This document shows, in pieces, positions 44,419-64,000 of a stretch of DNA of 64,000 nt. The translations under genes and the position numbers were made by a program. The stretch lies in NCBI GenBank assembly GCA_947037025.1, contig CAMQSU010000001.1:111522-175521 (forward strand), written 5' to 3'. Within the stretch, counting starts at the first letter, position 1; each line of letters begins with the position of its first letter. A model generated the notes under the pieces. It was not told where the DNA came from. It did not search any database and was given only the letters and a program-made list of their open reading frames with translations. This DNA is from an uncultured Clostridia bacterium. Its GTDB lineage: Bacteria; Bacillota; Clostridia; Christensenellales; UBA3700.

Positions 44419-44440
44419 GGCAATGATTGAGATGATTTAA

Positions 44441-45856: not shown

Positions 45857-46210
45857 TTTTAATCAAATTATATCATATAATGTGATCTTAGCATTGATAT
45901 AGTGTTGGTTATGATCGCGTTGAGTTATTATAGATAAAATAATATGAAAAATTTTAATTATGGTGTTGTAATGCGGCTGCAAAATATTAGAGGGTAATGG
46001 TTGAATTTATTGTTTAATAAATAACTGTCTAAGTAATGTAATAGCTATTGAATAGCAGGGTTGACAAATCCATCAAAATAGAATATAATAATACAAAAAT
46101 GTAGTTGCTGTAATAATAAAATACTAGTAACTACAAAACAAACATGCAAAACAAGAAATATATAACGATTTAGCCTTATATTAAATATGGCTATACATAT
46201 GGAGGAAATT

Positions 46211-48175
46211 ATGAGATTGTCAAAAGTATTGAAATCAGTATTTATTGGATTAGTGCTAGTAATGTTGTGCTGCGTAGGATTAGTTGCTTGTGCGCCAAAC
46301 ACCCCCCCAGTATACCCAGACCCAGTAGCAACTCGTATTATTACATTTAATGATAATGGCGGAGAAGGAACTATGCCCGCCCAAAAGGTGGAGTCTGGTG
46401 TACTTAGTGCCTTTAGTGAGAACACATATACAAAGGAGGGACATATCTTTGAGGGTTGGGCTATCTCAGCTTATGGAAAGGCTGAATATGAAGACGGCGG
46501 CAGCTATAAGATAGATATGGATGTTACTTTATATGCTGTATGGACACTAACTATGTATAATATCACATTCAACGCTAATGGTGGATCAGGAACTATGCCC
46601 GAAAGAAATGCGGGGTATGATGTGCCAACTTTCCTGGGATGGAACGCTTTTACAATGGAGGGATATTTATTTACAGGTTGGGCTCTTACTGCTACTGGCG
46701 AAGTTGTAGTTGAAGATGCCGAACGTTATCGCACAAAGAAAGATGTGATGTTATATGCAATTTGGACACAATCTATGTATGATATTACATTCGACCCTAG
46801 TCACGGAGAAGGAGCTATGCCCGATCAAAATGTGGGCTCTGGTGTCCCTAATACATTGAGTGCGAACACGTTTGTAAAGGAAGGATATGACTTTGCTGGT
46901 TGGGCTCTCACATGGTATGGCGATGTTGCACATGCAGATGGTGCAAAGTATAGTACAACAGGAGATGTGACTTTATATGCAGTTTGGGAAGTTGCTATAC
47001 TTGACATCAAATTTGATTTTAATGACGGAGAAGGAACTATGGCTACGCAAGAGGTGGAATATGGCAAATATATTACATTGAGTGATAACACATTTGAAAA
47101 GGGAGGATATGTCTTTACAGGTTGGTCTCTCACAGATGATGGCAAAGTTATTTATGAAGATGGCGCACGCTGTAGCACAACAAAAGATGTGACTTTATAT
47201 GCAGTTTGGGAAGTTACGGCAGAGCAAGGGCAGTTGAAGTATTCTTATGGCGTAAATGGAGCAACTGTAACAGGTTTAGTTGATGCTCATGCTGACGCTA
47301 CATCAGTTGATATTCCTGCTGAGGTGACTTTTGAAGGAAAAGTATATAACGTGACAACTATCGGATATAAGGCATTCTATAATTGCGATTTACTTAAAAG
47401 TATAATAATACCAAATGGTGTGACAAGTATCGAAAATTATGCATTTTTTCAGTGCACCAGCCTTACTAGTATAAAAATACCTAATACAGTTGAACGCATT
47501 GGAGCGAGTGTATTTACTAGCTGCATCAACCTTATTAGCATAACAATTACAGATAGTGTGACTAGCATTGGGGATTATGCATTTTCTTATTGTGAAAGCC
47601 TTACAAGTATAACAATACCAAACAAATTGACAACTATCAGCAGTAAAACATTTATAATGTGTGAAAGCCTTGAAAGTATAACAATACCAAACAGTGTGAC
47701 AAGTATTGGGTCTGAGGCATTTAGGGGTTGCACAGGACTTACCGAAATAACAATACCTGATAGCGTGACAAGTATTGGTAGCAATGTATTTAGTGGTTGT
47801 ATTAAATTAGAGAGTATAAATGTTGATAGCGGCAATCCTATATATTCAAGTGTAGATGGAGTTTTATTTAGTAAAGATCAAACTGTACTAATAAAATATC
47901 CTGTAGGGAATGTTGCGGCTAGTTATACTATACTAAGTAGTGTTAAACGTATCGACTGGTACGCATTTTCTTACTGCACAAATCTCACTAGTGTAACAAT
48001 ACCAAATAATGTGACAAGTATAGCTGGTTTTGCATTTCAGGATTGCACTAATTTAGCTAATATATATATGATTAGAGAGAGTAGTGAAGGTATGACATTA
48101 GGCAATTATTGGAATGATATTAATGGAGAAGAAGCAGGTGGATTGATTGAGACAACATGGAGCTATAAAGTATAA
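46211..48175 (+). CDS. surface lipoprotein with 5 Listeria/Bacteroides-type (Flg_new) repeats and BspA-type leucine-rich repeats
   Basis: It has a lipobox signal (VGLVAC|AP). There are 5 repeats of ~70 aa of the form (I/F)TFN.NGGEGTMP...EG..F.GW....G...Y.DG..Y.....VTLYAVW. These are followed by ~10 repeats of ~23 aa of the form IP..VTSIG..AF..C..LTSIT. The start is at MRLSKV, after GGAGGA. Confidence 0.8.
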   Translation: MRLSKVLKSVFIGLVLVMLCCVGLVACAPNTPPVYPDPVATRIITFNDNGGEGTMPAQKVESGVLSAFSENTYTKEGHIFEGWAISAYGKAEYEDGGSYKIDMDVTLYAVWTLTMYNITFNANGGSGTMPERNAGYDVPTFLGWNAFTMEGYLFTGWALTATGEVVVEDAERYRTKKDVMLYAIWTQSMYDITFDPSHGEGAMPDQNVGSGVPNTLSANTFVKEGYDFAGWALTWYGDVAHADGAKYSTTGDVTLYAVWEVAILDIKFDFNDGEGTMATQEVEYGKYITLSDNTFEKGGYVFTGWSLTDDGKVIYEDGARCSTTKDVTLYAVWEVTAEQGQLKYSYGVNGATVTGLVDAHADATSVDIPAEVTFEGKVYNVTTIGYKAFYNCDLLKSIIIPNGVTSIENYAFFQCTSLTSIKIPNTVERIGASVFTSCINLISITITDSVTSIGDYAFSYCESLTSITIPNKLTTISSKTFIMCESLESITIPNSVTSIGSEAFRGCTGLTEITIPDSVTSIGSNVFSGCIKLESINVDSGNPIYSSVDGVLFSKDQTVLIKYPVGNVAASYTILSSVKRIDWYAFSYCTNLTSVTIPNNVTSIAGFAFQDCTNLANIYMIRESSEGMTLGNYWNDINGEEAGGLIETTWSYKV

Positions 48176-48287: not shown

Positions 48288-48350
48288 GCTCCACAACAGT
48301 ACACACTTAAGTCTTTTAGATAAGTCTTAAGTGTGTACTTTTATTTTGCT
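48288..48350 (+). repeat. diverged second copy of the ssrA 3' end plus terminator (att-like)
   Basis: GCTCCACAACAGTACACACTTAAGTCTTTTAGATAAGTCTTAAGTGTGTACTTTTA aligns with 43698-43757, GCTCCACCACAACATAACGCACATAAGTCTTTTAATTAAGTCTTATGTGCGTTTTTTT. The hairpin is preserved by compensatory changes. Confidence 0.7.
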
Positions 48351-48882: not shown

Positions 48883-51807
48883 ATGAATATATATGATCAC
48901 ATACGTGAAATTAGCGAGTTGAATGATAATGGACAATTAGTGATTTTCGTAGGTGCTGGTGTCTCAAAGAATGTAAAAGGTATGCCTTCATGGAAAGAAC
49001 TAATTAAATCTATGGCTGAATCCATAAATTATACAAAATGTAATAACTGCAAACAAAAGGTTGATGGGTGTAATGATCAATGCAGATTTATAGACCATTT
49101 TTCGGTGGAAGAATTTCTTAAAATTCCACAATACTTATTCAATGAAAATCCAGAATTATATAAGGAAAAGCTTAAAGAAAATGTTAGTGGTGAAATTATA
49201 GATGCTAAATTAAGTGGGCTGATATTTGATATCTTGCCACAGCATATTATTACTACAAATTATGACAAACTATTAGAATCATCAAATAACATCAATAGGC
49301 TTATTTTTGATGTAGTATGTAATGACAAAGAATTAATTTCTTCAGACAGGGCTCGTCACATTATAAAAATGCATGGTGATATTAGTGATATAGATAGTAT
49401 TGTGCTAAAAGAATCTGATTATTTAAATTATAGCCAAAAAAAAATATTAATTGAAACATTTATTAAATCATTAATGATTAATCACACTTTTGTTTTTTTG
49501 GGTTATTCGCTAAATGACAATAATATTAAACAAATAATTAGTTGGATTAATTATTTAAAAGAGCAAAATGGACTAGCGGAGAAAAAAACATTGGGGTACT
49601 TAGTGCTCGATGATGCAACTGTTTCTCAATTGGAACTAGATTATTATGCAAGAAGCGGTATTCAAATAATAAATATAAACAAGCTAGTGCCATGCGAATC
49701 AAGTCCATCTGAATTAGAAGAAATAGGCAAAAGACTTTACACTTTTTTGTTGTTGATAAAAGATGAGAGTTTGTACGATTCATATAACAGAGAAGCTGTT
49801 TTTGCAAAGAAAAGTGAATATTTAAGCAAGTACCCTTTTATTAGCTATCGGAAACTTCTTAAATACATCGGAATAAAATCATACAAGAAAATATCCGGTA
49901 CGTTGCAGCTGCATAATGTGGAAGATTACAAATGGTTGGTGACTAAGTTGCAGTCTGAAAATTCGGTTGGTACTCAAATTAGGAGGTTGTTCCTAAATGC
50001 TGAAATTAATTGGTTGACTTTATTTGAGCCTAAATGCAGCCATAGGATAATTCAACACCATAATGCACAATTAGACGAACTTAATTATAATATATATCTG
50101 GAAAACAGATATTATAAATTGTATGAGACAATAATAAAAGGGGAAAATGATTTCGAAAAGCTATTCTATATTAATAAAATGTATCCTTATAGTAAGCAAG
50201 CAAAAGAAATATTAAATGACATAGGTGCGAATGTTAGTGTGATAGACAACATTGCCAAATTACAATATACATATAACAATACTTTGATGAAAAGTTCCGA
50301 TACATACACCTTTAATTGGAAAGATTACGACGCAATGTTTAGTTCAATTTTGAATAACAAAGAAAAAGAATTATTTCGTTTCTTTAGTGATATTAGAGAT
50401 ACAAACAAGGAAGATCTTGAATTCATGCAAAGTAAGTTATCTAAGTTAATTGATCATTATAAAAACTTTAACACGATTTTTGCATATGGCGGTGATTTAT
50501 CGATTTTATACGATATTCAAAATATCGCTTATGAATATTATGTTTATCATTATGAATATTTTATTTTTTCGGAAAGATTCTATGTAGTGAGAGGCATATT
50601 AAGTCCATATATAGAGGCGATGTTGTGTACGAATGGTAATAGGGGGGAAGCCTACCACCCCTTTGATGAAAGGAAAAAACGCAATGTCGATCGATATGGA
50701 CTTAATAGATATGATATTGATATGATTATAAAGTATATTGATTCCAAGACACTTGAGTTATGGATTCGGAAACATGAAGTAAAGCAGCTTAATATAAATA
50801 ATCCTGAAGGATTTATTCAAGGATTTATTAACTTAATAGATTCGCTGATAAAAATACCGAATGGTTTTTATTTGGGATATGAACAAATGCTAAGCAATTA
50901 TTTGATAGTATGTGCTTATTGTGACTTGACTGATATACAATTAGAAAAAATTATGAGCAGACTGGTAGAGTTATTCGACAATAAAGATCGATTTGATATA
51001 TATTTCGCACGTCCACCATATTACCGAGATAAATTTGAGTATTTTATTAGATTTGTTAAACTTGCTAACTGCAAGACTACACATTTGAGCATAGTTAAGA
51101 TATTATTCAGTAGCAGTAAATTTTTCAGTGATATTTACCCAAATGTAGGATCATATCATATCAATGAGTTAAATTGCTTGCTAGCAATTGGTGAGAATGA
51201 GGAAGAACTTGATATTAACACGATTTTTGAATCCGTCGAAGATATTGCGCAAAAAATAATAATTATTGGTTGTATGAAGGACGTAATTGCTCGAAAAAAC
51301 TTAAAGGATGAATACAAAAAAATTCTACAGGATAATTACAATAAAATTCCTATGTTTGATTTGCTAGGTTTTATTTTTGGCGATTGGATTGATGTTAATG
51401 AAGAAGTAAAAAAGTATTTGCTATCATTAGTTATATCGAATAGCAGAGTAAATAATACAAGGTCATTTCCTGATTATCTCCTTGGCGCAATTGAGATAGT
51501 AGTAGTATGCCACTTAAAGGGCAAAATAAAAGATATTAATTCAATTTCAATGTTTAGGGACGAGGACGAAACCTTAGACTTTCTAATTGAGCCAAATACC
51601 TTCGACTACTCAAAAGTTGATTTATCCAATTATAAATGGCAGAATATTGCCAATTGCAAGAAATATAAAGAGATTTTAATTAATCATAAAAAAGATATAA
51701 TTAAGACAATACAAAAGCATATAGAGGTGAAGACTGTTAGCAGGTTTGAGCTTGGATTTTTATTTAAATTTTTAGTTGAAGAAGAAGAAATGTGGAAATA
51801 TATGTAA
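48883..51807 (+). CDS. defence-associated sirtuin: N-terminal SIR2-like (SIR2_2) domain plus ~700-aa helical C-terminal region, DSR2-like architecture
   Basis: It has LVIFVGAGVSKN (nucleotide loop), HIITTNYDKLLE (TxNxD) and IIKMHGDI (catalytic His), all within the first ~180 aa. The total length is 974 aa from MNIYDH, which follows GGGAGG. Confidence 0.7.
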   Translation: MNIYDHIREISELNDNGQLVIFVGAGVSKNVKGMPSWKELIKSMAESINYTKCNNCKQKVDGCNDQCRFIDHFSVEEFLKIPQYLFNENPELYKEKLKENVSGEIIDAKLSGLIFDILPQHIITTNYDKLLESSNNINRLIFDVVCNDKELISSDRARHIIKMHGDISDIDSIVLKESDYLNYSQKKILIETFIKSLMINHTFVFLGYSLNDNNIKQIISWINYLKEQNGLAEKKTLGYLVLDDATVSQLELDYYARSGIQIININKLVPCESSPSELEEIGKRLYTFLLLIKDESLYDSYNREAVFAKKSEYLSKYPFISYRKLLKYIGIKSYKKISGTLQLHNVEDYKWLVTKLQSENSVGTQIRRLFLNAEINWLTLFEPKCSHRIIQHHNAQLDELNYNIYLENRYYKLYETIIKGENDFEKLFYINKMYPYSKQAKEILNDIGANVSVIDNIAKLQYTYNNTLMKSSDTYTFNWKDYDAMFSSILNNKEKELFRFFSDIRDTNKEDLEFMQSKLSKLIDHYKNFNTIFAYGGDLSILYDIQNIAYEYYVYHYEYFIFSERFYVVRGILSPYIEAMLCTNGNRGEAYHPFDERKKRNVDRYGLNRYDIDMIIKYIDSKTLELWIRKHEVKQLNINNPEGFIQGFINLIDSLIKIPNGFYLGYEQMLSNYLIVCAYCDLTDIQLEKIMSRLVELFDNKDRFDIYFARPPYYRDKFEYFIRFVKLANCKTTHLSIVKILFSSSKFFSDIYPNVGSYHINELNCLLAIGENEEELDINTIFESVEDIAQKIIIIGCMKDVIARKNLKDEYKKILQDNYNKIPMFDLLGFIFGDWIDVNEEVKKYLLSLVISNSRVNNTRSFPDYLLGAIEIVVVCHLKGKIKDINSISMFRDEDETLDFLIEPNTFDYSKVDLSNYKWQNIANCKKYKEILINHKKDIIKTIQKHIEVKTVSRFELGFLFKFLVEEEEMWKYM

Positions 51808-52312
51808 ACAGACATGATCTTTTTCAATGCTTAGTGAAATGAAGTGTTTTTCACGTATGAAATAAGCGTGTGGCTTTTATACCACGCGATTGTTTTATTT
51901 GTAAATGCATACATTTTTATAAACTTGTTGCTGTGATTCAGGGTAATACTGTAAACTTTATTAATCTGATAATAACATTATTTTGACCGATTAATCAATC
52001 TATCATAAATTTGAAGATAATTGCGTTATTTCAGTACTCGAGCTTGTAAAGTAGATAATATTATGATATAATATACTAAGATATTAAGTGTCTGAAATAA
52101 TTAAGTAATATTATAGTTTAACAGTTAAGGCATATAGGAAAGATTACGAGCGTTTCAAATAGGGATTTAGTAATGTATGATACAAAACAAAAAGAGCAAA
52201 GTGTTTGTTTGGAAAATTATAGATGGAAAGAGGGCAGGAATCATAGGATGATATCCATACCTCTTTACTGAAATCTTTGCAAGTAATTATGGTAAAAATA
52301 GGAGGGGAATAA

Positions 52313-53236
52313 ATGTATTTTAAACCAAGAATATTTATTAGTTCGACGATGACTGACAAGTTGCAACTAAGGGCGAAAATTAAGTCTTTTTTCAGCTCAA
52401 TCGGGGCTGAGGTTGCATTATATGAAAAAGACTTAACTCCATCGATTGATAAAATGACTTATAGACAAGACATCTTAGCAACAGATTTTGTTATATTTAT
52501 CATTGATGATAAATATGGAAATAAAACAGACGCGGGTATTTCCGGAACGCAAGAAGAGTTCGAGATTGTATGTAAAAACAAAAAGCCTTGTCATGTATAT
52601 CTCAAATTAATCGAAAAAACAGATGAAGCAAATAGGTTTGAAAGGTTAATTATACAGAAAGGGTTTTCGGTTTATTATTATAAAGATAACAAAGATCTTC
52701 TAAGTAAAATTAAATCCACATCTTTTACTTTGGCTAAAAACATAGTAGATTTTAATATTATTAATCAAGGTGTTGATCCTGCTGTATTGTCTTATTTGGC
52801 AGTTAAAAATGATTATGGTGAAGCGTTAATTTATTGTAAGATCTTTGAAAGGGTGTTGGAAATATCGCGCGCTACCGGGTTTGATTGTTTGAATTCTAAC
52901 TTGTTAATTGCTACGATGGAAGATATCGTTGAAAACAAATTATGTAGGAGTCCTAAATTCATTGATAAAAAATTGGATGAATTAGTGAATAAATTCTGCG
53001 AATCTATTAGTCATGCTATGCAACAAATAGGGAGTAAATCTGTTCCTAATAGTAACGTGATTTCTTATGAATTTCCATATGTGGGTCAAATAAGTTTGTC
53101 TAGAAATATTTGGAATCCAGTAATTGACCATGATTGGCAAGAACCAGCGGTCCAAGATATCAATTTTACGTATCGTGAGTGTAAAAATTATATTGCTAAC
53201 ATGGGATTAGAGGCTGATATACTAAAGTCATTGTAG
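52313..53236 (+). CDS. DUF4062-like (TIR/nucleoside-deoxyribosyltransferase-like fold) domain protein with unknown C-terminal domain
   Basis: The N-terminus reads RIFISSTMTDKLQLRAKIKSFFSSIGAEVALYE...ATDFVIFIIDDKYG...GISGTQEEFE, which is the pattern I recall for DUF4062. It has an AGGAGG RBS and its own terminator. Confidence 0.5.
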   Translation: MYFKPRIFISSTMTDKLQLRAKIKSFFSSIGAEVALYEKDLTPSIDKMTYRQDILATDFVIFIIDDKYGNKTDAGISGTQEEFEIVCKNKKPCHVYLKLIEKTDEANRFERLIIQKGFSVYYYKDNKDLLSKIKSTSFTLAKNIVDFNIINQGVDPAVLSYLAVKNDYGEALIYCKIFERVLEISRATGFDCLNSNLLIATMEDIVENKLCRSPKFIDKKLDELVNKFCESISHAMQQIGSKSVPNSNVISYEFPYVGQISLSRNIWNPVIDHDWQEPAVQDINFTYRECKNYIANMGLEADILKSL

Positions 53237-53286
53237 GATAGGAACATTTTTACAATGTTATAAATATAATATTAGATAAATGAATA

Positions 53287-53319
53287 AGTGGATGCTAATT
53301 ACTATAGCATCCACTTTTT
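53287..53319 (+). terminator. rho-independent terminator after the DUF4062-like gene
   Basis: AGTGGATGCTA / TAGCATCCACT perfect 11-bp stem, followed by a T5 run. Confidence 0.85.
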
Positions 53320-53408
53320 ATAATATATATCGGTAATTGTCTTGATTTTATGTAAAAATAGTGTTATAATGGGATAATATAACGCAAATCAGTTGCATAG
53401 GAGAAAAG

Positions 53409-55349
53409 ATGAAAAAAACATTTTCAATTAATAATAGGCGATATCTAGGAAATAAGTTCAAATTAAATGATTTCATCACGGGTGTAGTGAATTCTGAGTG
53501 CGTTGGTATTAATACGGTTGCGGATATTTTTTCTGGTACTGGAGCAGTTGCTTCTGCATTCTTGGATAAGAAAATTATTACTAATGATATCTTATATTCC
53601 AACTATATATGTCACTATGCATGGTTCAGTCCAGAAAAATTCAGCGTAAAGAAGATTGCTGGTTACATTAATAATTATAATGGATTTGATCAATTATCCG
53701 GAAATTATATGTCTGATAACTTTTCTGATACGTTTTTCAGTAATGTTAACTGTATGAAAATCGGATATATTAGAGAAAATATAGAGCACGAATTCAGTGC
53801 TGGAAATATGAATAAAAGAGAAAGAGCGTTGTTGATTTGCTCGTTGTTATATGCTATGGATAGAATAGCAAATACTTGTGGGCATTATGATGCGTATAGA
53901 AAAGATGGTGATTTAGATAGATCATTAGAACTGTTAATGCCTCTCCTTGAAATTAATAATAATGCAAATAACTTGTGTTTTAATGAGGATACTAATGAAT
54001 TAATTAAAAAAATTGAAGTCGATTTAGTGTATATAGACCCACCATACAATTCAAGGCAATATTGCGATGCTTATCACTTATTGGAGAATGTCGCTAGATG
54101 GGATAAGCCTTTAGTTAAAGGTGTGGCTAGAAAAATGGACAGGGCCGAGCTAAAAAGTGATTACTGCACGAAAGCTGCGCCGTTAGCATTTGAAGAGTTG
54201 GTTTCTAATATTAAAGCTAAATACATACTTCTCTCATATAATAATATGGGTGAAAAGGGTAATGACAGATCAAATGCAAAATTATCGGATGAAGATATTA
54301 TGAGAATACTATCTTCTAAAGGCAAGGTGAAGATATTCAAGAAAGAGTACAAATCATTTACTGCAGGTAAGTCAAGTATAATTGATAATGAGGAAAGGTT
54401 GTTTTTATGCGAGTGCTATGATTATGAAAGTAAAGAGTTAATTCAATCACCACTAAATTATGTGGGAGGAAAATATAAATTATTGCCTCAAATATTGCCG
54501 CATTTTCCGAAACATTACTCTCAATTTATTGATTTAATGTGTGGCGGTGGAAATGTAGGTATAAATGTGAATTGTAATAAAGTAGTATTTAATGATTGTA
54601 ACAAGTTGTTGAGATTTATGTTTGGTACATTTAAAAGCTTAGATAAGGATATAATTTTTGAAACAATTGATAGAATTATTGAAGATTATAACTTGTCAAA
54701 TACAGCTGCTCATGGATACTCGTACTATGGATGTAATAGTAAAGATGGTTTAGGACAGCACAATGAAGCTGGATACAAAAAACTGAGACAAGATTTTAAC
54801 AATGTTGCTAAATTAGAATATAATTACTACATAGTTTTATATGTTATAATCGTATATGCATTTAATAATCAAATACGTTTTAATAAAAAAGGTGAATATA
54901 ATTTACCAGTAGGTAAGAGGGATTTTAATTGCAAAATGAGAAATAAGTTGTCTAAATTTGTTGATCGACTTAAAAACGGCGATTTTACATTGGCAAGCGA
55001 TGACTTTAGAGAATTAGATAAAAGCAGTTGGGATAAAAATACATTTGTATATATTGATCCACCATATTTAATTGGGTGCGCAACATACAATGAACAGGGC
55101 GGTTGGACAGAAAAATCTGAGCAGGAACTATTAAAATATTTGGATGAATTGCATTGTAAGGGTATAAAGTTCGCACTTTCTAATGTTTTTTCTAGTAAGG
55201 GAAAGACGAATGATATATTAAAAAATTGGGCAAAGGTAAATGCTGATAAATATAGAGTTATTTATTTAAATTATAGTTATTCAAATTCAAATTATCAAAT
55301 CAAGGATAAAATATCTCCGACTGAAGAAGTGTTGATAGTAAATTATTAA
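53409..55349 (+). CDS. fused double N6-adenine DNA methyltransferase (two Dam/D12-class domains), type IIS-like
   Basis: Domain 1 has RRYLGNKFKL...FSGTGAV...VYIDPPYNSRQY. Domain 2 has LNYVGGKYKLLP...MCGGGNVG...VYIDPPYLIG. Both AdoMet and DPPY motifs are therefore present twice in one 646-aa chain. Confidence 0.85.
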   Translation: MKKTFSINNRRYLGNKFKLNDFITGVVNSECVGINTVADIFSGTGAVASAFLDKKIITNDILYSNYICHYAWFSPEKFSVKKIAGYINNYNGFDQLSGNYMSDNFSDTFFSNVNCMKIGYIRENIEHEFSAGNMNKRERALLICSLLYAMDRIANTCGHYDAYRKDGDLDRSLELLMPLLEINNNANNLCFNEDTNELIKKIEVDLVYIDPPYNSRQYCDAYHLLENVARWDKPLVKGVARKMDRAELKSDYCTKAAPLAFEELVSNIKAKYILLSYNNMGEKGNDRSNAKLSDEDIMRILSSKGKVKIFKKEYKSFTAGKSSIIDNEERLFLCECYDYESKELIQSPLNYVGGKYKLLPQILPHFPKHYSQFIDLMCGGGNVGINVNCNKVVFNDCNKLLRFMFGTFKSLDKDIIFETIDRIIEDYNLSNTAAHGYSYYGCNSKDGLGQHNEAGYKKLRQDFNNVAKLEYNYYIVLYVIIVYAFNNQIRFNKKGEYNLPVGKRDFNCKMRNKLSKFVDRLKNGDFTLASDDFRELDKSSWDKNTFVYIDPPYLIGCATYNEQGGWTEKSEQELLKYLDELHCKGIKFALSNVFSSKGKTNDILKNWAKVNADKYRVIYLNYSYSNSNYQIKDKISPTEEVLIVNY

Positions 55350-55358
55350 GGAGGAATT

Positions 55359-57344
55359 ATGAGCGAGATTAAATTTAAAAGTTATTGCTGGTGTGTAGGA
55401 ACTACTAGTTATAGGACTAAAAATTACGGTTTAAGTATAGAATTGCAATTAGATTTATTGGATAGATTTTTGCAACTCGAAAGCAGTCAAAATCAAGACT
55501 GGAGAGAATTGCAAGCTGCTTACTATTACTACTTGAAAAAAAACGGGTTTGTACAGGGTGATGCATTACGTCCAGATAAAGATGCTCGTGAAAAAACTTC
55601 AGGTATGGTTGATATAGGGCTATTGACTCAGCAAAGAAAATTGACAGAAGCCGGTGAGGCATTGCTGTTAATGAGTCGTAATAAAGATTTTAATGATGGT
55701 AATGAAATGCAAATACAAGCAGATAGTTATTTGTATTTTAAACAGTTGCTGAAGACTTCTATAACAGTAGAAGGTAAGATAATCAGACCATTTATAGTGT
55801 TCCTTTATTTATCGTCCAAATTAGATGGATTATCTATTGAAGAATTTGCATACTTCATGCCGATGTGTGTAGATAATATTACTACTCAGCGCATTATTGA
55901 AGAGATTAAGTTGTTTAGACTTGGTAAGGTAGACTTAGATGATGCGATATTTAGTGTAGTTGAAAAGATGGACAACTATGTTAGTGCTTTTGATTTGTTA
56001 TCTAAAAGCACAGTCGTTGATGCAGATCTAATTTGCACAATTGGGTTTAACCGTAAAAGCAAGTCGGTAGCAAAGTATGATACTATATTCTTAGATATAT
56101 ATAATGCTTTAAATAACATATATATTAAAGAGGATAATGACGTATCGGAGTTATATGAAGCAATTTGTAAGATTAAGGGCAACACTAAAGTGCTTTGGAA
56201 AAAGAAGTTTTTTGGCAAAAATATCAAAAGCTTAATATTGGAACAGGGAAAGTCAATAATGCAACATACTGAGTTCGATTCCGCTAAAACAGTACAGGAT
56301 ATAAAAAGATTATTTTTTAAGACATTGCATACATTTAAAGTTAAAGCAACACTTGCTGATTACAAGGACCTGAACAGAAGATATTTCATGTTATCTGATT
56401 GTATATTGTTCAAAGATGGGCGCGTTGAAATTGATGTTTTGCCAAAAGCATATATTAAACCAATCATAGATGGATTATATAATCAGGCATACATAAAGTT
56501 TGATCTTAAAGGTCAGGATTTGCCTTTATATGAAATTGACAATAATTTCAAAACTTCTTTGAGTGGATTATATAAGGAATTAAGTAATTCATTGGGCGTG
56601 ACTGTTTCAAATGCTGAAGAAGCAAAGAATATAGTTAGGGATGTACGATACAGCAGGTTTAATCAAATGTTAGATGAGAAATATAGTAAGAGCCAATTGG
56701 TTAATCTACTAAGCATGTTTGAGGATCGAAGCGATGACGAGTTGAATAAATACATAACTGATGCAGCGCTAGTACCTACATTATATGAATATATTGTAGG
56801 TATAGCTTGGTATCAAATCAGCGAACGACAAGGCGATATTTTAGAATATATTAATTTATCTTTAGATGCTAATTTATTGCCAAAGTCCCATGCTGGAGGA
56901 TTAATGGCTGACATTGTGTATCAGTATGAAGCTAATCAGTACTATCCTAAACATTCATTATTAATTGAAGCAACATTAAGTGAGAAAGGTGGGCAACGAA
57001 TAATGGAGATGGAGCCTGTTTCTAGACATCTAGGAGAATATTCTATTGCTAATAAGGGGAGTGAATGTTATTGTGTATTTGCTCCCACAAACTTAAATCC
57101 AAATATAGTGTGTGATTTCAGAATGAGAAAAAATGCTTCGTATGTTAAATTTGATGGAACAGATAGTATTAGAGGACTAAAGATTATACCTTTTGCAAGC
57201 AGTGAATTAAAAACAGCTTTAATTAATGATATTAGTTACAAGAGTTTATATGAAATTTTTGCTGATGCACACAATTCAGAGGCCGAAGATATAGACTGGT
57301 ACGCGGCGGAAATTGTGGACAGGCTAAATCTATGCGTTCAATAG
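55359..57344 (+). CDS. putative type IIS restriction endonuclease (AlwI-family-like), partner of the double methylase
   Basis: It starts 9 nt after the methylase stop, with an AAGGAGG RBS, and is 661 aa. The N-terminal W.VGTTSYR...KDAREKTSGMVDIGLL resembles what I recall of the AlwI/MlyI/N.BstNBI family. The C-terminal region has a D...E.(T/K)-type candidate (LMADIVY...LLIEATL). The call rests mainly on context. Confidence 0.5.
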   Translation: MSEIKFKSYCWCVGTTSYRTKNYGLSIELQLDLLDRFLQLESSQNQDWRELQAAYYYYLKKNGFVQGDALRPDKDAREKTSGMVDIGLLTQQRKLTEAGEALLLMSRNKDFNDGNEMQIQADSYLYFKQLLKTSITVEGKIIRPFIVFLYLSSKLDGLSIEEFAYFMPMCVDNITTQRIIEEIKLFRLGKVDLDDAIFSVVEKMDNYVSAFDLLSKSTVVDADLICTIGFNRKSKSVAKYDTIFLDIYNALNNIYIKEDNDVSELYEAICKIKGNTKVLWKKKFFGKNIKSLILEQGKSIMQHTEFDSAKTVQDIKRLFFKTLHTFKVKATLADYKDLNRRYFMLSDCILFKDGRVEIDVLPKAYIKPIIDGLYNQAYIKFDLKGQDLPLYEIDNNFKTSLSGLYKELSNSLGVTVSNAEEAKNIVRDVRYSRFNQMLDEKYSKSQLVNLLSMFEDRSDDELNKYITDAALVPTLYEYIVGIAWYQISERQGDILEYINLSLDANLLPKSHAGGLMADIVYQYEANQYYPKHSLLIEATLSEKGGQRIMEMEPVSRHLGEYSIANKGSECYCVFAPTNLNPNIVCDFRMRKNASYVKFDGTDSIRGLKIIPFASSELKTALINDISYKSLYEIFADAHNSEAEDIDWYAAEIVDRLNLCVQ

Positions 57345-57491
57345 AAATAATAAGCAAGCTTTTTCAATATGTGTAAAAGAAATAAATAAATTGACACAAA
57401 TTACAAAGCTGCAAGTCATTAATACGGGTTATAACAAAGAAAATTGCATATCGAAAATTGTTGGTCGCATAGAATGATTAAAGGAGAAATA

Positions 57492-59552
57492 ATGGAGAAA
57501 GAAAATAAGTTGTTTGACAGAGCGAATAAAATATTAGTAGAATTATTTGGAGAAAATGCAATTTTTAGAGATGGTCAATTCGAAGCCATAGAAGCCGTAA
57601 ATATAAACACAAGGACGATTGTAGTACAAAAAACGGGTTGGGGAAAAAGTCTAGTTTACTTTTTGTCAACAAAGATTTTTAGAGAAGATGGCAAAGGTGT
57701 AACAATAATTATCAGTCCTTTGTTAACTTTGATGGCTAATCAAGTTGATTCAGCAAAAGTATATGGCTTGAATTGTGAAATTATGAATTCAACTAATAAA
57801 AATTGTCATGCTGAAATATTCGCAAAACTAAAATCAAATGAAGTTGATGTATTGTTCACTACTCCTGAAACATTATTTAGTGCAATTAAAAAAGAATTAA
57901 CTAATATTAAAATAGGATTTCTCGTTATTGATGAAGTTCATTGCATATCGGATTGGGGGCATGATTTTAGGCTTGAATATTGTAAATTGAAAGAAATTAT
58001 AGGATTGTTGCCTCAAAATGTGCCAATATTAGGAACAACAGCAACAGCAAATGATAGAGTTGTCTCTGATTTGAAAGATCAATTTGGTAGTGATGTGTAC
58101 ATATCAAGAGGTCCATTGACTAGAGAATCGTTAGCAATAGATGTCATCAAAATGCCTGATAAAGCGAGTAGATATGCATGGATATTAGACAATATTAACA
58201 AATTAGATGGTAGTGGTATAATATATTGTTTAACCAAAATGGATTGTGGATATTTGACTGAATTTCTTGATAAAAATGGTGTATCGGCAATGTGGTATTG
58301 TTCAAATAACAATGCAGAAGAATATCTATTTGAAGCTGAAAGAAAGTTCATGAATAATGAGATAAAAGTGCTCGTTGCAACTATTAAGTTAGGTATGGGA
58401 TATGACAAAGGCGATATAGGATTTGTTATACACTATCAAATGCCAAGTAATGTTGTAGCTTATTATCAACAAATTGGACGTGCTGGTAGAAATATTGACA
58501 AAGCATATGCGATAATGTTAACAGGAAAAGAGGATTCTAGTATTACTAATCATTTTATTAATAATGCTTTCCCATCAAGGAAAGAGGTTGAAAATATTAA
58601 GACTTTGTTAGAAGAAACTAATGGAATGAAAATTGCAGAAATATTATCAAAAGTTAATATTAATCGAAAGAGAGCTTTAAAAGCGATTGAATTTTTAGAA
58701 AAAGATGGTTATATTTTTAAAGAGAATCATTCCTATTATTTGTCACCTAAACCATTCTATTATGATGAAGAAAAATATACTGCTTTAAAAAATATACGAA
58801 ATAGAGAATATTCGGACATGCAGTCATTAATAGAGAGAACTGAATGTTTGAGCAAGTTTGTAGTTAATAGATTAGATGATAATACTGCTGTTAATTGTGG
58901 TAAATGTTCGAATTGTATAGGTCATCATATATTATCTGAAAAAGTTAATGTCGAAAAACTCGAAATTAGTCAAGAATATATTAAAAGTTTGAAAATGCTA
59001 ATTGAGCCAAGGAAGCAATGGACAGATAGAAAACGTTTGACTTATTTTAATTATCAAGGCATTGCGTTGTCTAGATATGGCGATATAGGATATGGCGAAT
59101 TAGTTAAAAGAGATAAGTATTCTAATCAAAAGAGGTTTTGTGATGAATTAGTTGGCAAAAGCAGAGAGTTGCTAATGCCTTATATTAAAGATCATAATAT
59201 TACTCACATCACTTCTATTCCGTCATTAAGAAGCAATATTGTAACTGATTTTGCGAAGAGGTTAGCAAGCGTATGTAAATTGGAATATGTTGAGTTATTA
59301 AGCAAAGTAGTACGTGATAATGATTTTCAGCAAAAAGATATGGAAAATTCATCATTTCAAGAGCGTAACGCTATAGAATCATTCGAATTTATAGAAGGAA
59401 GAAGTGTTCCTTTAAATATTATTCTAATTGATGATGTTGTTGATTCAAAATGGACTCTTACAGTATGTGGGCACAAATTGATGGAACATGGATGCAAGTT
59501 AGTGTTCCCGTATGCACTAGCTGATAGTTCGCAAGGAGGTAGCAATGAATAG
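57492..59552 (+). CDS. RecQ-family helicase fused to a C-terminal ComFC-like phosphoribosyltransferase domain
   Basis: RecQ motifs are present: QKTGWGKSLVY, IDEVHCISDWGHDFR, GTTATA and QQIGRAGR, plus the Zn motif CGKCSNC. The C-terminus carries the PRPP-loop motif NIILIDDVVDSKWTL. The start is at MEKENK, after AAGGAG. Confidence 0.8.
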   Translation: MEKENKLFDRANKILVELFGENAIFRDGQFEAIEAVNINTRTIVVQKTGWGKSLVYFLSTKIFREDGKGVTIIISPLLTLMANQVDSAKVYGLNCEIMNSTNKNCHAEIFAKLKSNEVDVLFTTPETLFSAIKKELTNIKIGFLVIDEVHCISDWGHDFRLEYCKLKEIIGLLPQNVPILGTTATANDRVVSDLKDQFGSDVYISRGPLTRESLAIDVIKMPDKASRYAWILDNINKLDGSGIIYCLTKMDCGYLTEFLDKNGVSAMWYCSNNNAEEYLFEAERKFMNNEIKVLVATIKLGMGYDKGDIGFVIHYQMPSNVVAYYQQIGRAGRNIDKAYAIMLTGKEDSSITNHFINNAFPSRKEVENIKTLLEETNGMKIAEILSKVNINRKRALKAIEFLEKDGYIFKENHSYYLSPKPFYYDEEKYTALKNIRNREYSDMQSLIERTECLSKFVVNRLDDNTAVNCGKCSNCIGHHILSEKVNVEKLEISQEYIKSLKMLIEPRKQWTDRKRLTYFNYQGIALSRYGDIGYGELVKRDKYSNQKRFCDELVGKSRELLMPYIKDHNITHITSIPSLRSNIVTDFAKRLASVCKLEYVELLSKVVRDNDFQQKDMENSSFQERNAIESFEFIEGRSVPLNIILIDDVVDSKWTLTVCGHKLMEHGCKLVFPYALADSSQGGSNE

Positions 59553-60510
59553 TAATTCAGAAATGATTGTAATACTATGTAGTAGATTATGTATGGGCGA
59601 ATCAATAAAGCCGTTAGAGTCGGCAGAATGGAGTAAGTTTGCATTACGTATTAGGGATTCAGGGCTTGAACCGAAAAATTTGTCTGATTTTTCTAAAGAT
59701 GAGTTAGTTAAGAAGTTGTTAATAAAAGATGAATTTGCTCAAAGAATTTTAGATTTAATAGGTAGGTCTGTAAGTTTATTTATTGAGCTTGAGAGATATT
59801 TTAATATTGGTATCAAAATCGTAACTAGAGCTGATAAAGCGTATCCAAATAAATTATCAAGAAATTTAGGAAATAGCAAGCCACCATTTTTTTATTACGC
59901 AGGCGATATAAATATTTGTGACGATGAGTCAATTGGATTTGTTGGATCTAGGAATATATCAGAAACCGATATCAGTAATGTGCAAGAGTTGGTAAATAAA
60001 GCAAATAAGTTAGGATATACTATTGTATCTGGTGGTGCAAAAGGTGTAGATTCAATTGCGACTAATCAATCATTATTAAATGGTAGTGCTGTTGTTGAAT
60101 TCGTTGCTGACTCGATGATTAAGAAGATAAAAGTAGCTAATTATAGTAAAGCAATAAGAGATGGTCGGTTAGTAGTACTTTCTGCAGTTAATCCTGATGG
60201 AGGATTTAATGTTGGTAATGCTATGAGTAGAAATAAGTTTATTTATACTAGTTCAAAGGCTACAATAGTTGTAAAAACTGACTACAATAAAGGCGGAACA
60301 TGGGCGGGTGCAATTGAGAATATGCGACAAAAGTGGAGTCCAGTATATTGTGTAGAAAATAATCGATATGAAGGTAATAGGGCGTTGATTTCACAAGGAG
60401 CAATAGCCATTAATACTGAATGGGATTTTAATATTGAAAAGAAAGATAAAGTTGAACGAATTCAAGAAATTAGCATTTTTGAATTGTTGAATAGTAATAA
60501 TAAAGTATAG
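59545..60510 (+). CDS. DprA/Smf-like (SLOG/Rossmann) protein
   Basis: It has VTRADKAYPNKL...PPFFYYAGD...IGFVGSRNIS...GYTIVSGGAKGVDSIA...MSRNKFIY...GGTWAGA, which is the DprA core pattern. It overlaps the RecQ-PRTase gene by 8 nt. Confidence 0.75.
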   Translation: MNSNSEMIVILCSRLCMGESIKPLESAEWSKFALRIRDSGLEPKNLSDFSKDELVKKLLIKDEFAQRILDLIGRSVSLFIELERYFNIGIKIVTRADKAYPNKLSRNLGNSKPPFFYYAGDINICDDESIGFVGSRNISETDISNVQELVNKANKLGYTIVSGGAKGVDSIATNQSLLNGSAVVEFVADSMIKKIKVANYSKAIRDGRLVVLSAVNPDGGFNVGNAMSRNKFIYTSSKATIVVKTDYNKGGTWAGAIENMRQKWSPVYCVENNRYEGNRALISQGAIAINTEWDFNIEKKDKVERIQEISIFELLNSNNKV

Positions 60511-60559
60511 TGATAGAAAAAATTATTTTAGACGTAATCATTATTCTTAATATCAGCAT

Positions 60560-60586
60560 GCAAGGATGTTATTCATCCTTGCATTT
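60560..60586 (+). terminator. terminator-like hairpin after the dprA-like gene
   Basis: GCAAGGATG (60560-60568) pairs with CATCCTTGC (60574-60582), followed by ATTTT. Confidence 0.6.
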
Positions 60587-60762
60587 TGCATGTTCAATGT
60601 GTTATATAGTAGAATTGCGAACCTAAAATTTAAAAATTTGCAAAATTATGCCATTTAACTGCAATTGATGTTGTTAATATTATTTTTCTGTCAAAATTAA
60701 TGAATTATATGGTATAATATGGGAAAAGATTAATAAATAATATTTATAAATAAGGAGGGTGT

Positions 60763-61473
60763 ATGACTGCAATACCCAATCAAAGAGAATATTTAGCTAA
60801 AGGTGAGAAATTTAAAAATCATGTTAAAGAGTTCGATAAATATCTTAGAACCGACGAGTGCATTATTGTACATATAGATGGGGTCGATTTTACGAGTGGA
60901 TATTATAAAAAATTGAAGGTTCCATATGATTACAATTGCTTTAAAGCCATATGTAATACTGCGGTTAAACTATGTGGTGAAATAAAAAGTGCACGACTTT
61001 GTTATGTAGCGAATGATGAAATAGTAGTAATACTAGATGGGGCTGAAATCAAGGAGAACTTTCACAATAGAATACAGAAAATATCATCTATATTGGCTAG
61101 TATGTGCTCTGTATATTTTATTGCTGAATTAGAAAACATCATAGCTTCAGAATTTCCACATAATAAGGGATATGCAGTGCTGAAGGATAATGCTGTTTTT
61201 GCTGCAAAATGTTTTAATTTGGAGAAGCATTATATTAATGAATATTTTCAATGGAGACAATATGGATGTAAAAAATCTATTTTTGATAAAAGATTGAATT
61301 ATGATGGTCAGGATGAGTGGGTGAAAAATGGCGCTGTTGTACTTCATAGTGAGGATAATTGGGTATGCAGAACTGATGTTGATTTAACTAAACATAAGCT
61401 TGTTAGATCACCGCAAAATAAGTTTTATTTTCCTATAGAAGTAAAATTGGATAAAAACATGGGGGCGAAGTGA
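60763..61473 (+). CDS. Thg1-like protein (tRNA-His guanylyltransferase family 3'-5' nucleotidyltransferase)
   Basis: Blocks align by eye to eukaryotic Thg1 as I recall it. IIVHIDGVDF matches VVVRLDGRNF. CYVANDEIVVIL matches AYGQSDEYSFVF. NRIQKISSILAS matches RRASKFMTHVAS. YFQWRQYGCKKS matches YLSWRQADCHIN. The metal-binding acidic residues are conserved. Confidence 0.75.
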   Translation: MTAIPNQREYLAKGEKFKNHVKEFDKYLRTDECIIVHIDGVDFTSGYYKKLKVPYDYNCFKAICNTAVKLCGEIKSARLCYVANDEIVVILDGAEIKENFHNRIQKISSILASMCSVYFIAELENIIASEFPHNKGYAVLKDNAVFAAKCFNLEKHYINEYFQWRQYGCKKSIFDKRLNYDGQDEWVKNGAVVLHSEDNWVCRTDVDLTKHKLVRSPQNKFYFPIEVKLDKNMGAK

Positions 61474-61476
61474 AAT

Positions 61477-62427
61477 ATGGATATTAATAAGACTATAAAT
61501 ACAAAATATTTAGAAGAATGCTTCCGCTTGGTTGATACTCTAGAGTTAGGGAGCAGTAAGGACTATAAACAAACCGTAAATTTATTTGTATTGAATAATG
61601 TCAATGATAAATTTGATTATCAATGTTTGAAGTCATTAATTAGAAATAACTTAGCCAACTATGTTTTCAATAGACGTAAGATAGATGATTATATAAAAGA
61701 TGGTACAGTTGTAGAATCCGGATTTGACGCAAGGGATAAACTAGTTGAAATAAGCGAAAATGCCTTAGATAAGGAAAATTTTGGAGCTGGCGGCGAATTA
61801 GGTGAGATACTATTGTATATATTTTTGGAAGGTTTTTGCGGTAGTAAAAAACTTCTATCTAAAGTCGAAATCAAAACTAATAATAAAGATTATGTTAAGG
61901 GATTTGATGGAGTTCATTTTAACATAAAAAAAACATTAGATGGGGAAGTTTATCAAATAATTTTTGGTGAATCTAAAATTGTAACTAATCTTAATAAAGC
62001 CATTTCGGAAGCGTTTGATTCTCTGATAGGCTGCTATGAGAATAAGGCAACTGAATTTTCTTTGTTAGATGAGAGCATTATGAATGAGTTCGCTGTTGAC
62101 AATGAAACCGTGGAGATGTTAAAAAAAATTCTAATTCCTAAATATCAAAGTGCAAATTGTTTATGTGAAGTTGAGCATGCTTTTGGTATTTTTATTGGTT
62201 ATACAATTCAATATAGCGAAGATAATAGGAATCTGCATAAAAAGGCAATGATTGATACTCAAATTAAAAGTGATATTGAGAAAGTGAAGGTAGTAATAGC
62301 GAATAAGATAGCAAAAACCTACCATGGCAATAACTCTGATTATTATATATATATCATGCCTTTTAATGATGCAAAAGTTGACAAAAAAGAAATCATGGAA
62401 TATATTGCTGGTAGGAGGATGAATTAA
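61477..62427 (+). CDS. hamA: Hachiman HamA-like protein (DUF1837, PD-(D/E)xK nuclease fold)
   Basis: It has GELGEILLYIFLE...LSKVEIKT...KGFDGVHF...IFGESKI (a D...ExK core). It starts 3 nt after the Thg1-like stop and is followed immediately by an SF2 helicase. Confidence 0.7.
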   Translation: MDINKTINTKYLEECFRLVDTLELGSSKDYKQTVNLFVLNNVNDKFDYQCLKSLIRNNLANYVFNRRKIDDYIKDGTVVESGFDARDKLVEISENALDKENFGAGGELGEILLYIFLEGFCGSKKLLSKVEIKTNNKDYVKGFDGVHFNIKKTLDGEVYQIIFGESKIVTNLNKAISEAFDSLIGCYENKATEFSLLDESIMNEFAVDNETVEMLKKILIPKYQSANCLCEVEHAFGIFIGYTIQYSEDNRNLHKKAMIDTQIKSDIEKVKVVIANKIAKTYHGNNSDYYIYIMPFNDAKVDKKEIMEYIAGRRMN

Positions 62428-62428
62428 A

Positions 62429-64000
62429 TTGAAATTATCATTTGGGGATGTCTTATTAAATGAGATAGAGAATAATTTATATTTCAAATCATTGTATAAT
62501 GAAGTACTAAGTTTATATGGGGACAAAATAATTAATGGAACACTAAATAATAGTTTTAGTGATGATAAAATCAATGATATCTTAAGATTTGCAGATATTT
62601 TATCGAAATCAAATGTCACAAATAAATTGAGTTTTCATAGGAATTTAGCTCAAGATATTGTGATAATAATGTCGGTTGTATTTGCACATGATAAAAACAT
62701 ACATGAAAAAGTTAGTTTTTACGAAAAAAATATTTTTAGCACTGTATCCAATTACTCGGGATTTAGCAAGGTTAAGGGGGGCGATAAAGTGGCGAATAAT
62801 GCTGATTACTTTTCCGACTTTGCTAATAATATAAAAAAAGAGTTTAATAGAGTTGACGGAAGTCAGGATGTTTTTTATTTCGATTCTCAAAAAAAAGCCT
62901 TGAATATGATGGAAAATATGCAATACTATAGTTTTTCTGCACCAACTTCAATGGGAAAAACATTTATAATTAAAAATTTCTTAAAAAATAAAATTTTAGA
63001 TAGTAATTGCAGATGTATAGTATTAATTTTGCCGACTAAAGCACTTATAAATGAGTTGGAAGAAGACCTAATTCTAGAGAGCTGCACAGAGTTGAACTTG
63101 CATAATTTCGTCGTGCTAACAATTCCAACACAAATTAAGTTGTTTGCAGCAGAGCGAAAAATATTGTTGTTTACGCCTGAAAGAATGTTACAGGCATTAA
63201 ATGATGAATCAATTAAAGATATTGATTACTTTTTTGTCGATGAATCACAGAAAATTTTCGAGTCAGATGAAAGAGCGCCTTTGTATTATAAGCTGCTGGA
63301 AAAAGTCAATGCTACAATGCCGTTAACTAAAATAATATTTTCCTCTCCATACACTGAAAATCCTGAAATACTTTTGGAATTGATTAATAGTCCATATATT
63401 CAAAATAAGAAAGAATTAGCCGGATCTGACAAGTTTGATTTTACGCCAGTAGCACAGAAGCAATTTTTGATTGATGTTCACAATAATAAAGTTAAAGTAT
63501 ATAGTCAATTAGCAAGTGATTTTGTAAATATTACTTGTAACTCTAAAATTACTTGGACTGGCTTGATTGCAGAACAAACAAATTCAGGTCCTAGTATTGT
63601 TTATTGCAAATCAAAAGCTGATGTCTTAAAGTATGCGAATGAATATTCTAATCTTATAAAAGAACACGAAACCCTAGACAGTGAAATACTAAACTTGATT
63701 CATCTTGTTGAAACAGAAATAAATCCAGACTATTATTTAATTCCCTTATTGAAGAAAGGTATTGCTTTTCATATGGGTATTATGCCTTCACAAGTGAGAA
63801 AAAAAGTTGAAAATCTAATGAAAAATGGAGTTTTAAAAGTTGTATTTTGCACTTCAACGCTTCTTGAAGGCGTAAACTTGCCAGCAGTTAATATTTTTGT
63901 CCTATCACAAAAAAAGGGACATGGTAAATTAAGTGTACTAGAGTTCAAGAATTTAATCGGTAGAGCTGGAAGAATTAAATATAATTTATGGGGTAATGCT
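62429..64000 (+). CDS. hamB: Hachiman HamB-like SF2 (Ski2-like) helicase, 5' part; the CDS runs off the window
   Basis: This ORF is not in the supplied track because it is open to the window end. The TTG start at 62429 lies 10 nt after AGGAGG. My translation has no stops through nt 64000. Motif I is SAPTSMGKTF, motif II is FVDESQ, and FHMGIM is also present. Motif V is CTSTLLEGVNLPA and motif VI is IGRAGR. Confidence 0.75.
   Translation, partial: MKLSFGDVLLNEIENNLYFKSLYNEVLSLYGDKIINGTLNNSFSDDKINDILRFADILSKSNVTNKLSFHRNLAQDIVIIMSVVFAHDKNIHEKVSFYEKNIFSTVSNYSGFSKVKGGDKVANNADYFSDFANNIKKEFNRVDGSQDVFYFDSQKKALNMMENMQYYSFSAPTSMGKTFIIKNFLKNKILDSNCRCIVLILPTKALINELEEDLILESCTELNLHNFVVLTIPTQIKLFAAERKILLFTPERMLQALNDESIKDIDYFFVDESQKIFESDERAPLYYKLLEKVNATMPLTKIIFSSPYTENPEILLELINSPYIQNKKELAGSDKFDFTPVAQKQFLIDVHNNKVKVYSQLASDFVNITCNSKITWTGLIAEQTNSGPSIVYCKSKADVLKYANEYSNLIKEHETLDSEILNLIHLVETEINPDYYLIPLLKKGIAFHMGIMPSQVRKKVENLMKNGVLKVVFCTSTLLEGVNLPAVNIFVLSQKKGHGKLSVLEFKNLIGRAGRIKYNLWGNA

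Follow-up and report, generated by a model that had tools for sequence, protein, structure and literature searches.

What kind of region is the dense run of forward-strand genes that follows the tmRNA gene (ssrA) in an uncultured Clostridia bacterium (assembly GCA_947037025.1), and do these genes form one unit or several immune systems that arrived separately? The run closes a stretch of 64,000 nucleotides (nt) (contig CAMQSU010000001.1, here C1, positions 111,522-175,521), which is called the window hereafter. An earlier note, made from the letters of the window, had described it as a dense, unidirectional defence island of five modules. The analysis indicates a mosaic defence island located after ssrA and composed of five independently acting systems, probably acquired horizontally and separately, a reading to which a probability of about 0.85 is given. 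These are predicted to be a DSR2-like sirtuin, a single-gene DUF4062 protein, an AlwI-type restriction-modification (R-M) pair, PsyrTA and Hachiman, and all five belong to families with experimental support.

The source genome is a draft of 1.62 Mb in 63 contigs, 73.6% complete and with 34.7% GC, and 41 genomes (its own and others from the genus, family and order) were compared. Defence calls rest on matches to the hidden Markov models (HMMs) of PADLOC and DefenseFinder, taken without the system rules of those pipelines. Neighbourhoods of foreign loci were read from listings of open reading frames (ORFs) together with Pfam and PADLOC scans, not by batch BLAST. What the data show directly is which genes are present, the families they belong to, their fold and composition, their patchy distribution and the variability of the ssrA locus.

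The core genes of the window (ecfA, ecfA' and ecfT of an energy-coupling factor (ECF) transporter, truA, rplM and rpsI) stop at about 43 kb. Between 48,853 and 65,083, nine long ORFs on the + strand fill the sequence at a coding density of 91%, and the block reaches 1,083 nt beyond the window end. A family match was found for every gene of the island with PADLOC, Pfam or NCBIfam profiles, and the five modules were recognised by defence HMMs or by fold, as the earlier note had proposed. The GC content of the block is 30.1%, the lowest among 448 genome windows of the same size (mean 35.0%, standard deviation 1.5%), and it is uniformly low in each of the nine genes (29-32%). The tetranucleotide L1 distance of the block is 0.211 versus 0.102 ± 0.026, a value reached by 0.4% of the windows. 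Hence, the AT-richness that had been guessed by eye is real, and so is the k-mer deviation that had been suggested as a check. On the other hand, unidirectionality is not a mark of the island but part of a general strand bias, with 80% of the contig ORFs on the + strand and 49% of the genes of the genome in same-strand runs of at least nine. The GC skew is positive along the whole window. The next-lowest GC blocks of the genome (31-32%) are found on contigs C15 (about 10-37 kb), C16 (about 12-32 kb) and C24 (0-18 kb), and they may be further islands.

The strong ribosome binding sites (RBSs) that had been claimed ahead of the modules are present, and five of them were read directly in the sequence: GGGAGGA ahead of the SIR2 gene (48883), AGGAGGGG ahead of the DUF4062 gene (52313), AGGAGAAAAG ahead of the methyltransferase gene (53409), AAAGGAGAAA ahead of psyrT (57492) and AAGGAGGG ahead of the Thg1-like gene (60763). 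Terminator hairpins and promoter-like sites set the modules apart. The proposed separation by hairpins was recovered after the SIR2, DUF4062, psyrA and hamB genes (Table 1), but the total given by the hairpin scanner for the region (10 versus 6.1 ± 2.3 in shuffles) is not clearly above the background.

The block begins with the SIR2 gene, whose ORF opens at 48,853; the start at 48,883, behind GGGAGGA, is more likely. The protein matches Pfam SIR2_2 (2.2e-23), and 27 homologues all keep its catalytic motifs TTNYD (N126, D128) and MHGD (H164). The sequence match to DSR2 in the Protein Data Bank (PDB) is confined to amino acids (aa) 2-272 (6.4e-29), the PADLOC Dsr2 model covers just aa 9-233, and the SIR2 domain weakly matches the ThsA, PDC-S25, LmuA and Dsr2 models. 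The AlphaFold2 (AF2) model, made with 27 homologues, has a pLDDT of 84 and a pTM of 0.69. Foldseek aligned it with 44 full-length DSR2 chains at TM-scores of 0.50-0.68 (best 0.62-0.68), and its alignments with the cryo-EM structures of DSR2 span about 1,030-1,097 columns (E 3e-24) at 18% identity. The protein shares with DSR2 of B. subtilis 29R (PDB 8WKS, 8WY8) a length of about 1,000 aa, a SIR2 NADase whose catalytic Asn and His are present, a middle and C-terminal region made of helices only, the full-length fold and the stand-alone gene. However, the likeness in sequence is limited to the SIR2 domain, and the window sirtuin belongs to a large family of its own, in which full-length homologues, at least 997 of them, are 31-36% identical to it. 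Judged by the predicted model, the protein is DSR2-like by architecture and not an orthologue. Its homologues were found solo in two unrelated contexts, behind a type III R-M system and between a MACPF gene and thrS. In the first of these (locus L010, 5264-10952), a 983-aa sirtuin homologue starts 8 nt inside the end of the type III res gene, which suggests that an R-M system and a sirtuin effector are co-transcribed in that organism.

The DUF4062 protein matches Pfam PF13271 at aa 6-84 (5.8e-12, 46.1 bits versus a cut-off of 24.7). Swarozyc, Evangelion and NIR/Vulcan, in which a single gene encodes DUF4062 and an auxiliary (AUX) region, are NAD+-depleting abortive-infection systems with a catalytic Glu followed by an aromatic residue (KpSwz E97, Eva01 E87, Vulcan E98) (10.64898/2026.05.01.722283, 10.64898/2026.06.25.731849, 10.64898/2026.09.04.749371). 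The window protein shares with them the N-terminal DUF4062 core, the aromatic F8, the E82-F83 pair, a C-terminal auxiliary region and the single-gene setting in a defence island. Its match to KpSwz (PDB 10wc) is weak (E 0.0055) and covers the core only; there, E82-F83 aligns with the Ala of the E97A KpSwz chain, that is, with the E97 position, at an offset of +13 that was checked against D71. A two-gene system made of SIR2 and DUF4062 was considered and rejected: the SIR2 homologues that stand solo in the two contexts have no DUF4062 neighbour, and a terminator and a 500-nt spacer lie between both genes here.

The next two genes, 9 nt apart, encode a methyltransferase and a RE_AlwI endonuclease. 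The methyltransferase matches PADLOC MTase_II over its full length (8.3e-248), its halves match separate models (4.7e-116 and 8.3e-102), and Pfam MethyltransfD12 is found in two stretches. As in the AlwI-family type IIS systems, the RE_AlwI gene immediately follows that of an N6-adenine methyltransferase with two fused domains, and the two genes are predicted to be an AlwI-type IIS R-M pair. Enzymes of this family, AlwI and relatives such as MlyI/PleI/N.BstNBI, have GGATC and GAGTC as known sites. As for other motifs, GAGAC, CCAGG and GGACC occur at 0.48-0.52 of the Markov expectation genome-wide, a hint that systems outside the R-M of the island exert, or once exerted, restriction pressure.

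The pair formed by a RecQ helicase with phosphoribosyltransferase (PRTase) and a DprA-like protein had been left unassigned in the earlier note. Judged by its profile matches, it is PsyrTA (RqlHI). The PsyrT match has 751 bits and extends over aa 25-697 and profile positions 6-686 of 689, and the DEVH, Zn-binding and IILIDDVVD motifs are seen in the translation. The toxin gene comes first and shares 8 nt with psyrA, whose product reaches about 295 bits with the PsyrA model, versus 111 for the housekeeping DprA of the same genome (contig C16) and 74-127 in 36 relatives. Both PADLOC models are matched over their full length, and in this, in the gene order and in the overlap no difference from PsyrTA/RqlHI was detected, although the described examples are from Proteobacteria and the window pair is from a low-GC gut-type genome. 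PsyrTA protects against phage, and neutralisation of the toxicity by the antitoxin is reported for its homologues (Millman et al. 2022, 10.1101/2022.05.11.491447). Therefore, of the genes for which an immune function had been proposed from their neighbours, those at 52313 (DUF4062) and 57492-60510 (PsyrTA) do belong to validated defence families.

The last two genes of the block are hamA and hamB. The first 523 aa of HamB give 502 bits with the HamB1 model, and the full gene (884 aa) is complete in the contig extension (L001 13950-16604). The HamA (DUF1837) and HamB (Ski2-like helicase) pair, here with a spacing of 1 nt, is assigned by these matches to type I Hachiman, the HamAB system reportedly treated in Doron 2018 and Tuck et al. 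2024. In contrast with the related Hachiman loci examined, a Thg1-like gene lies ahead of the pair in what is apparently the same transcript.

Regarding the distribution of these genes among the 41 genomes, matches were found in three genomes for HamA, one for Thg1, four for DUF4062, four for RE_AlwI, one for a PsyrA-grade DprA and two for the C-terminal region of the SIR2 protein. The DUF4062 matches include two sister species, at other loci, and no island DNA was detected in eight other species of the genus. The cargo downstream of ssrA was compared at species level. Genomes G003 and G007 have a common syntenic set of non-defence genes there, which were not found in this 74%-complete genome; G002 carries a PDC-M26A-like ATPase and a DUF2357-like protein; and in the sister species G006 another mobile defence cargo occupies this site, with a serine recombinase, DUF5131/radical-SAM genes and a type IV restriction enzyme of the GmrSD kind. 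In three further sister species the contig ends at most 4.2 kb from ssrA. These differences are the presence/absence pattern expected of a hotspot at species level. In the G006 locus (L040, G006:C23:8183-17535; 102-7724), the 3' end of the large serine recombinase gene overlaps the tmRNA gene, and the DUF5131 protein is PDC-M30B-like. A comparable 17-kb cluster was seen in another genus of the same family (L044, G018:C33, 2343-18709), with an AlwI-like endonuclease and methylase, an IS3 transposase, ATPase_2/DUF234/Mrr-like and Abi_2/HEPN genes, and hamAB.

What the earlier note had named as evidence against an island, a core-like composition at a locus conserved in all relatives or modules left unassigned by the prediction tools, is the opposite of what was found. 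Its interpretation is supported, since the modules were confirmed, the composition deviates from that of the core and the locus is not conserved in the relatives.

Genomic islands are associated with ssrA genes, and defence islands occur at variable hotspots linked to tRNA and tmRNA genes; the concept of the defence island itself is reportedly that of Makarova et al. 2011. The window shares with such islands the clustering of unrelated systems, the atypical composition, a variable block next to ssrA and insertion sequences (IS) on both sides, since transposases of IS3 and IS21 flank the block. It differs from them in that no integrase and no clean att duplication were found around the defence genes and the distal boundary is lost. 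On the proximal side, the diverged second ssrA 3' end delimits the defence block, which starts after a further 500 AT-rich nt. In the test for an ssrA-integrated island, the 58-nt repeat (79%) proved to bracket a 4.6-kb non-defence islet, which ends at the second copy, and not the defence genes. Two 115-nt blocks (44411-44525 and 48168-48282, 77% identity) bracket the IS3 transposase and the leucine-rich repeat (LRR) lipoprotein, and a GACTTTA(G/T)GT-type motif is repeated at least five times around the 58-nt and 115-nt repeats. An 18-nt tmRNA-like match on contig C32 was considered as a possible attR and rejected, as it is a tRNA T-arm.

On the distal side, the extension beyond position 64,000 that had been suggested completed hamB up to 65,083, but it did not reach the end of the island. 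After hamB there is a hairpin and then a fragment of an IS21-family istA gene that runs off the contig end, 2,038 nt past the window, and no other contig of the genome overlaps this tail. As the sequence breaks off in this IS21 copy, the distal boundary and the mode of acquisition are not visible. A second IS21 copy ends contig C15 (36,641-37,517), with 77% aa and 87-94% nt identity.

Table 1. Features of the window, of the contig extension and of the RNase III and Thg1-like cassettes in other loci (coordinates are window positions unless a locus is named).
Feature	Position	Strand	Evidence
tmRNA gene (ssrA), anchor of the variable region	43361..43707	+	ARAGORN; Rfam RF00023 173 bits
58-nt direct repeat, first copy (3' end of ssrA with its terminator hairpin)	43705..43762	+	repeat search, alignment
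Non-defence islet (193-aa membrane protein, IS3 transposase, LRR/Flg_new lipoprotein)	43837..48175	.	
IS3-family transposase in the islet	44741-45856	-	
LRR/Flg_new lipoprotein in the islet	46187-48175		
58-nt direct repeat, second copy, diverged (79%; 3' end of ssrA with terminator)	48291..48348	+	repeat search, alignment
DSR2-like sirtuin, 974 aa, N-terminal SIR2 NADase domain and helical region	48883..51807	+	Pfam, AF2, Foldseek
Terminator-like hairpin after the SIR2 gene, T-run	51867..51888	+	
Single-gene DUF4062 (NIR / TIR-like NADase) protein, 307 aa, C-terminal auxiliary region	52313..53236	+	
Hairpin terminator after the DUF4062 gene, 12 bp, perfect	53286..53316	+	
Fused double D12-class N6-adenine DNA methyltransferase (M.AlwI-type)	53409..55349	+	PADLOC, Pfam
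AlwI-family type IIS restriction endonuclease	55359..57344	+	Pfam RE_AlwI 6.5e-67; PADLOC REase_II 6.2e-32
PsyrT toxin, RecQ-family helicase with C-terminal PRTase	57492..59552	+	PADLOC PsyrT 2.6e-226
PsyrA antitoxin (DprA-like)	59545..60510	+	PADLOC PsyrA 1.6e-88
Hairpin after psyrA, 9-bp stem, T-rich tail	60558..60586	+	read in sequence
Thg1-like protein (3'-5' nucleotidyltransferase fold)	60763..61473	+	Pfam, PDB match, AF2, Foldseek
HamA (DUF1837 nuclease effector of Hachiman)	61477..62427	+	PADLOC HamA1 4.3e-70, 234.7 bits
HamB helicase (on to window-equivalent 65,083)	62429..64000 in window	+	PADLOC HamB1 9.4e-151
Hairpin with T-run after hamB	L001 (contig extension) ~16628-16650		
RNase III and Thg1-like cassettes	L018 756-2536; L019 6147-7642; L020 5865-7654; L023 5983-7657		
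RNase III and Thg1-like cassettes, further	L025 378-2144; L045 3856-5645		

The gene ahead of hamA encodes a protein that matches Pfam Thg1 (1.3e-18, 67.6 bits versus a cut-off of 29.2) and PDB 4kgk (3.9e-9), with the IDG/SDE motifs aligned, and its carboxylates D39, D85 and E86 are invariant among relatives. Foldseek aligned its AF2 model (pLDDT 90) with 4kgk_D, the Thg1-like protein (TLP) of B. thuringiensis (TMq 0.69, TMt 0.77, E 3.3e-14). On the basis of this model, the protein appears to be a bona fide TLP, intact and full-length. Bacterial TLPs such as that of B. thuringiensis (4KGK) repair 5'-truncated tRNAs. The window protein shares their full-length fold and the three catalytic carboxylates; in contrast, it belongs to a small divergent subfamily (about 15 representative clusters) whose closest members are paired with an RNase III that has two double-stranded RNA-binding domains (dsRBDs), whereas here it stands alone in the island. 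In fact, an exhaustive HMMER search of 1.84 billion representatives gave only about 15 full-length relatives (27-42% identity), the other approximately 1,000 matches being generic Thg1/TLPs, and a word-indexed homologue search recovered only the protein itself. The subfamily was not found in the viral contigs of IMG/VR. Generic relatives exist in phages, as PHROG 4717 (phage 'tRNA-His guanylyltransferase') matches the protein at 3e-23.

The position of this gene raises the question of whether Thg1-like, hamA and hamB could be a true three-component variant of Hachiman, in which the polymerase would act on RNA or DNA 5' ends and this 5'-end modification or repair would serve sensing or self-protection against HamA. 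The gene order would fit: the Thg1-like stop lies 3 nt before the hamA ATG, a terminator hairpin precedes the Thg1-like gene, and a single promoter-like site (an extended -10, TGgTATAAT, at about 60709-60720) lies with the strong RBS upstream of it. Because of this promoter-like site, the RBS and the 3-nt gap, the three genes are likely co-transcribed here, and the catalytic triad and the TLP fold of the polymerase are intact. However, hamAB was absent beside the Thg1-like gene in all eight distinct closest-relative loci and in three more distant ones. The closest relatives keep other company. In five of the eight loci the gene is directly behind one for an RNase III of 274-371 aa, which carries one or more dsRBDs and weak Dicer-dimer-like matches, and the more distant relatives stand solo among housekeeping genes. 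Nor was a Thg1 gene found by hamAB in four contexts, the three closest hamA clades (45-52% identity) and G018, where the upstream neighbours are TetR, HsdR, a SACS-like gene and an Abi_2/HEPN gene. Likewise, no paper was found in the literature searched linking Thg1 with Hachiman or with defence islands. A conserved Thg1-HamAB triad was rejected, as the co-occurrence is not conserved in the loci examined, and the three-component variant is considered quite improbable. The 'Thg1-like/HamAB operon' of the earlier note is thus probably one transcript in this genome, but not a conserved three-gene system, and for this reason the neighbourhood says little in favour of an immune function at 60763. 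Most likely, the Thg1-like gene is cargo of its own, serving to repair or edit RNA 5' ends. The RNase III and Thg1-like cassettes, which are from gut Clostridia-type metagenome-assembled genomes, adjoin Wadjet JetCD in one locus (L020) and pPIWI-RE genes in another (L023), and they may be an undescribed RNA-processing or defence module. That the window protein is immune itself, either as a Hachiman accessory or as the surviving half of such a cassette acting in defence, is regarded as unlikely.

Two other explanations concern the block as a whole. The 16-kb block could be the cargo of one integrative element with a single entry at ssrA instead of a piecemeal accumulation. Such an origin would agree with the uniformly low GC of the nine genes, the diverged ssrA 3' end and terminator copy just upstream and the serine recombinase found at ssrA in a sister species. 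Nevertheless, the ssrA-like repeat does not enclose the defence genes, the modules are terminated separately and elsewhere are found apart from one another, and the distal end is out of sight. The solo SIR2 homologues and the other neighbours of the closest hamAB pairs indicate that the modules travel separately. Therefore, a single entry appears rather doubtful, though it is a more serious competitor than a purely housekeeping origin. In that last case the genes would be paralogues of RecQ, DprA, Dam, a sirtuin deacetylase and tRNA-His guanylyltransferase with no part in immunity. The generic family names do fit (recQ_fam at 249 bits, dprA, dam), but the defence-specific full-length models score far higher, as the PsyrT and PsyrA values given above illustrate, and no other block of the genome deviates as much in composition as the one that holds these genes, which are absent from the sister species. 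Such an origin is hardly credible.

Returning to the mosaic island of five independent systems, several observations weigh against it. Neither an integrase or recombinase nor a distal att repeat was found on the stretch, where only the transposases of IS3 and IS21 occur; the lack of an integrase or recombinase also counts against a single integrative element. With a draft about 74% complete, absences from the own genome are soft. The SIR2 protein scores 57.7 bits, with its SIR2 domain only, versus a cut-off of 1,400 for the NCBIfam Dsr2 equivalog NF041819. The C-terminal region of the DUF4062 protein, about 220 aa, has no match to a characterised AUX in Pfam, PADLOC, PHROG or PDB, and in this it differs from Swarozyc, Evangelion and Vulcan. 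The AlwI-family sites show no avoidance signal in the genome (observed/expected 1.19 for GGATC and 0.88 for GAGTC). Moreover, the 3-nt Thg1-hamA gap behind one promoter-like site argues for some functional coupling, and the 'separate cargo' reading leaves this proximity unexplained.

The biochemical activities, the phage triggers and the independent acquisition of the five systems are what we infer from these data. [quoted passage not shown] In a similar way to Swarozyc, Evangelion and Vulcan, the C-terminal region of the DUF4062 protein could sense a phage cue and trigger NAD+ hydrolysis via Glu82. The double Dam-like methylase would guard both strands of an asymmetric site while the endonuclease cuts unmodified incoming DNA, and the RecQ-PRTase toxin of PsyrTA would be restrained by its DprA-like antitoxin. 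In Hachiman, the HamB helicase would sense damaged or aberrant DNA and free the HamA nuclease. The Thg1-like gene may have landed ahead of hamAB and share its transcript.

As such, the island adds little, being a textbook stack of immune systems at a variable hotspot in a small, low-GC draft genome. Its value for the catalogue lies in a DSR2-like sirtuin, full-length and distant, whose family of about a thousand proteins is seen by current HMM tools merely as a SIR2 domain, in a DUF4062 NADase with an unclassified sensor region, and in the presence of two predicted NAD+-depleting effectors side by side. The Thg1-like gene is the sole element of the island without an explanation. If its immune role were true, it would be the first link of reverse-direction polymerases to anti-phage defence, and phage defence would gain a new enzymology, that of 3'-5' nucleotide addition.

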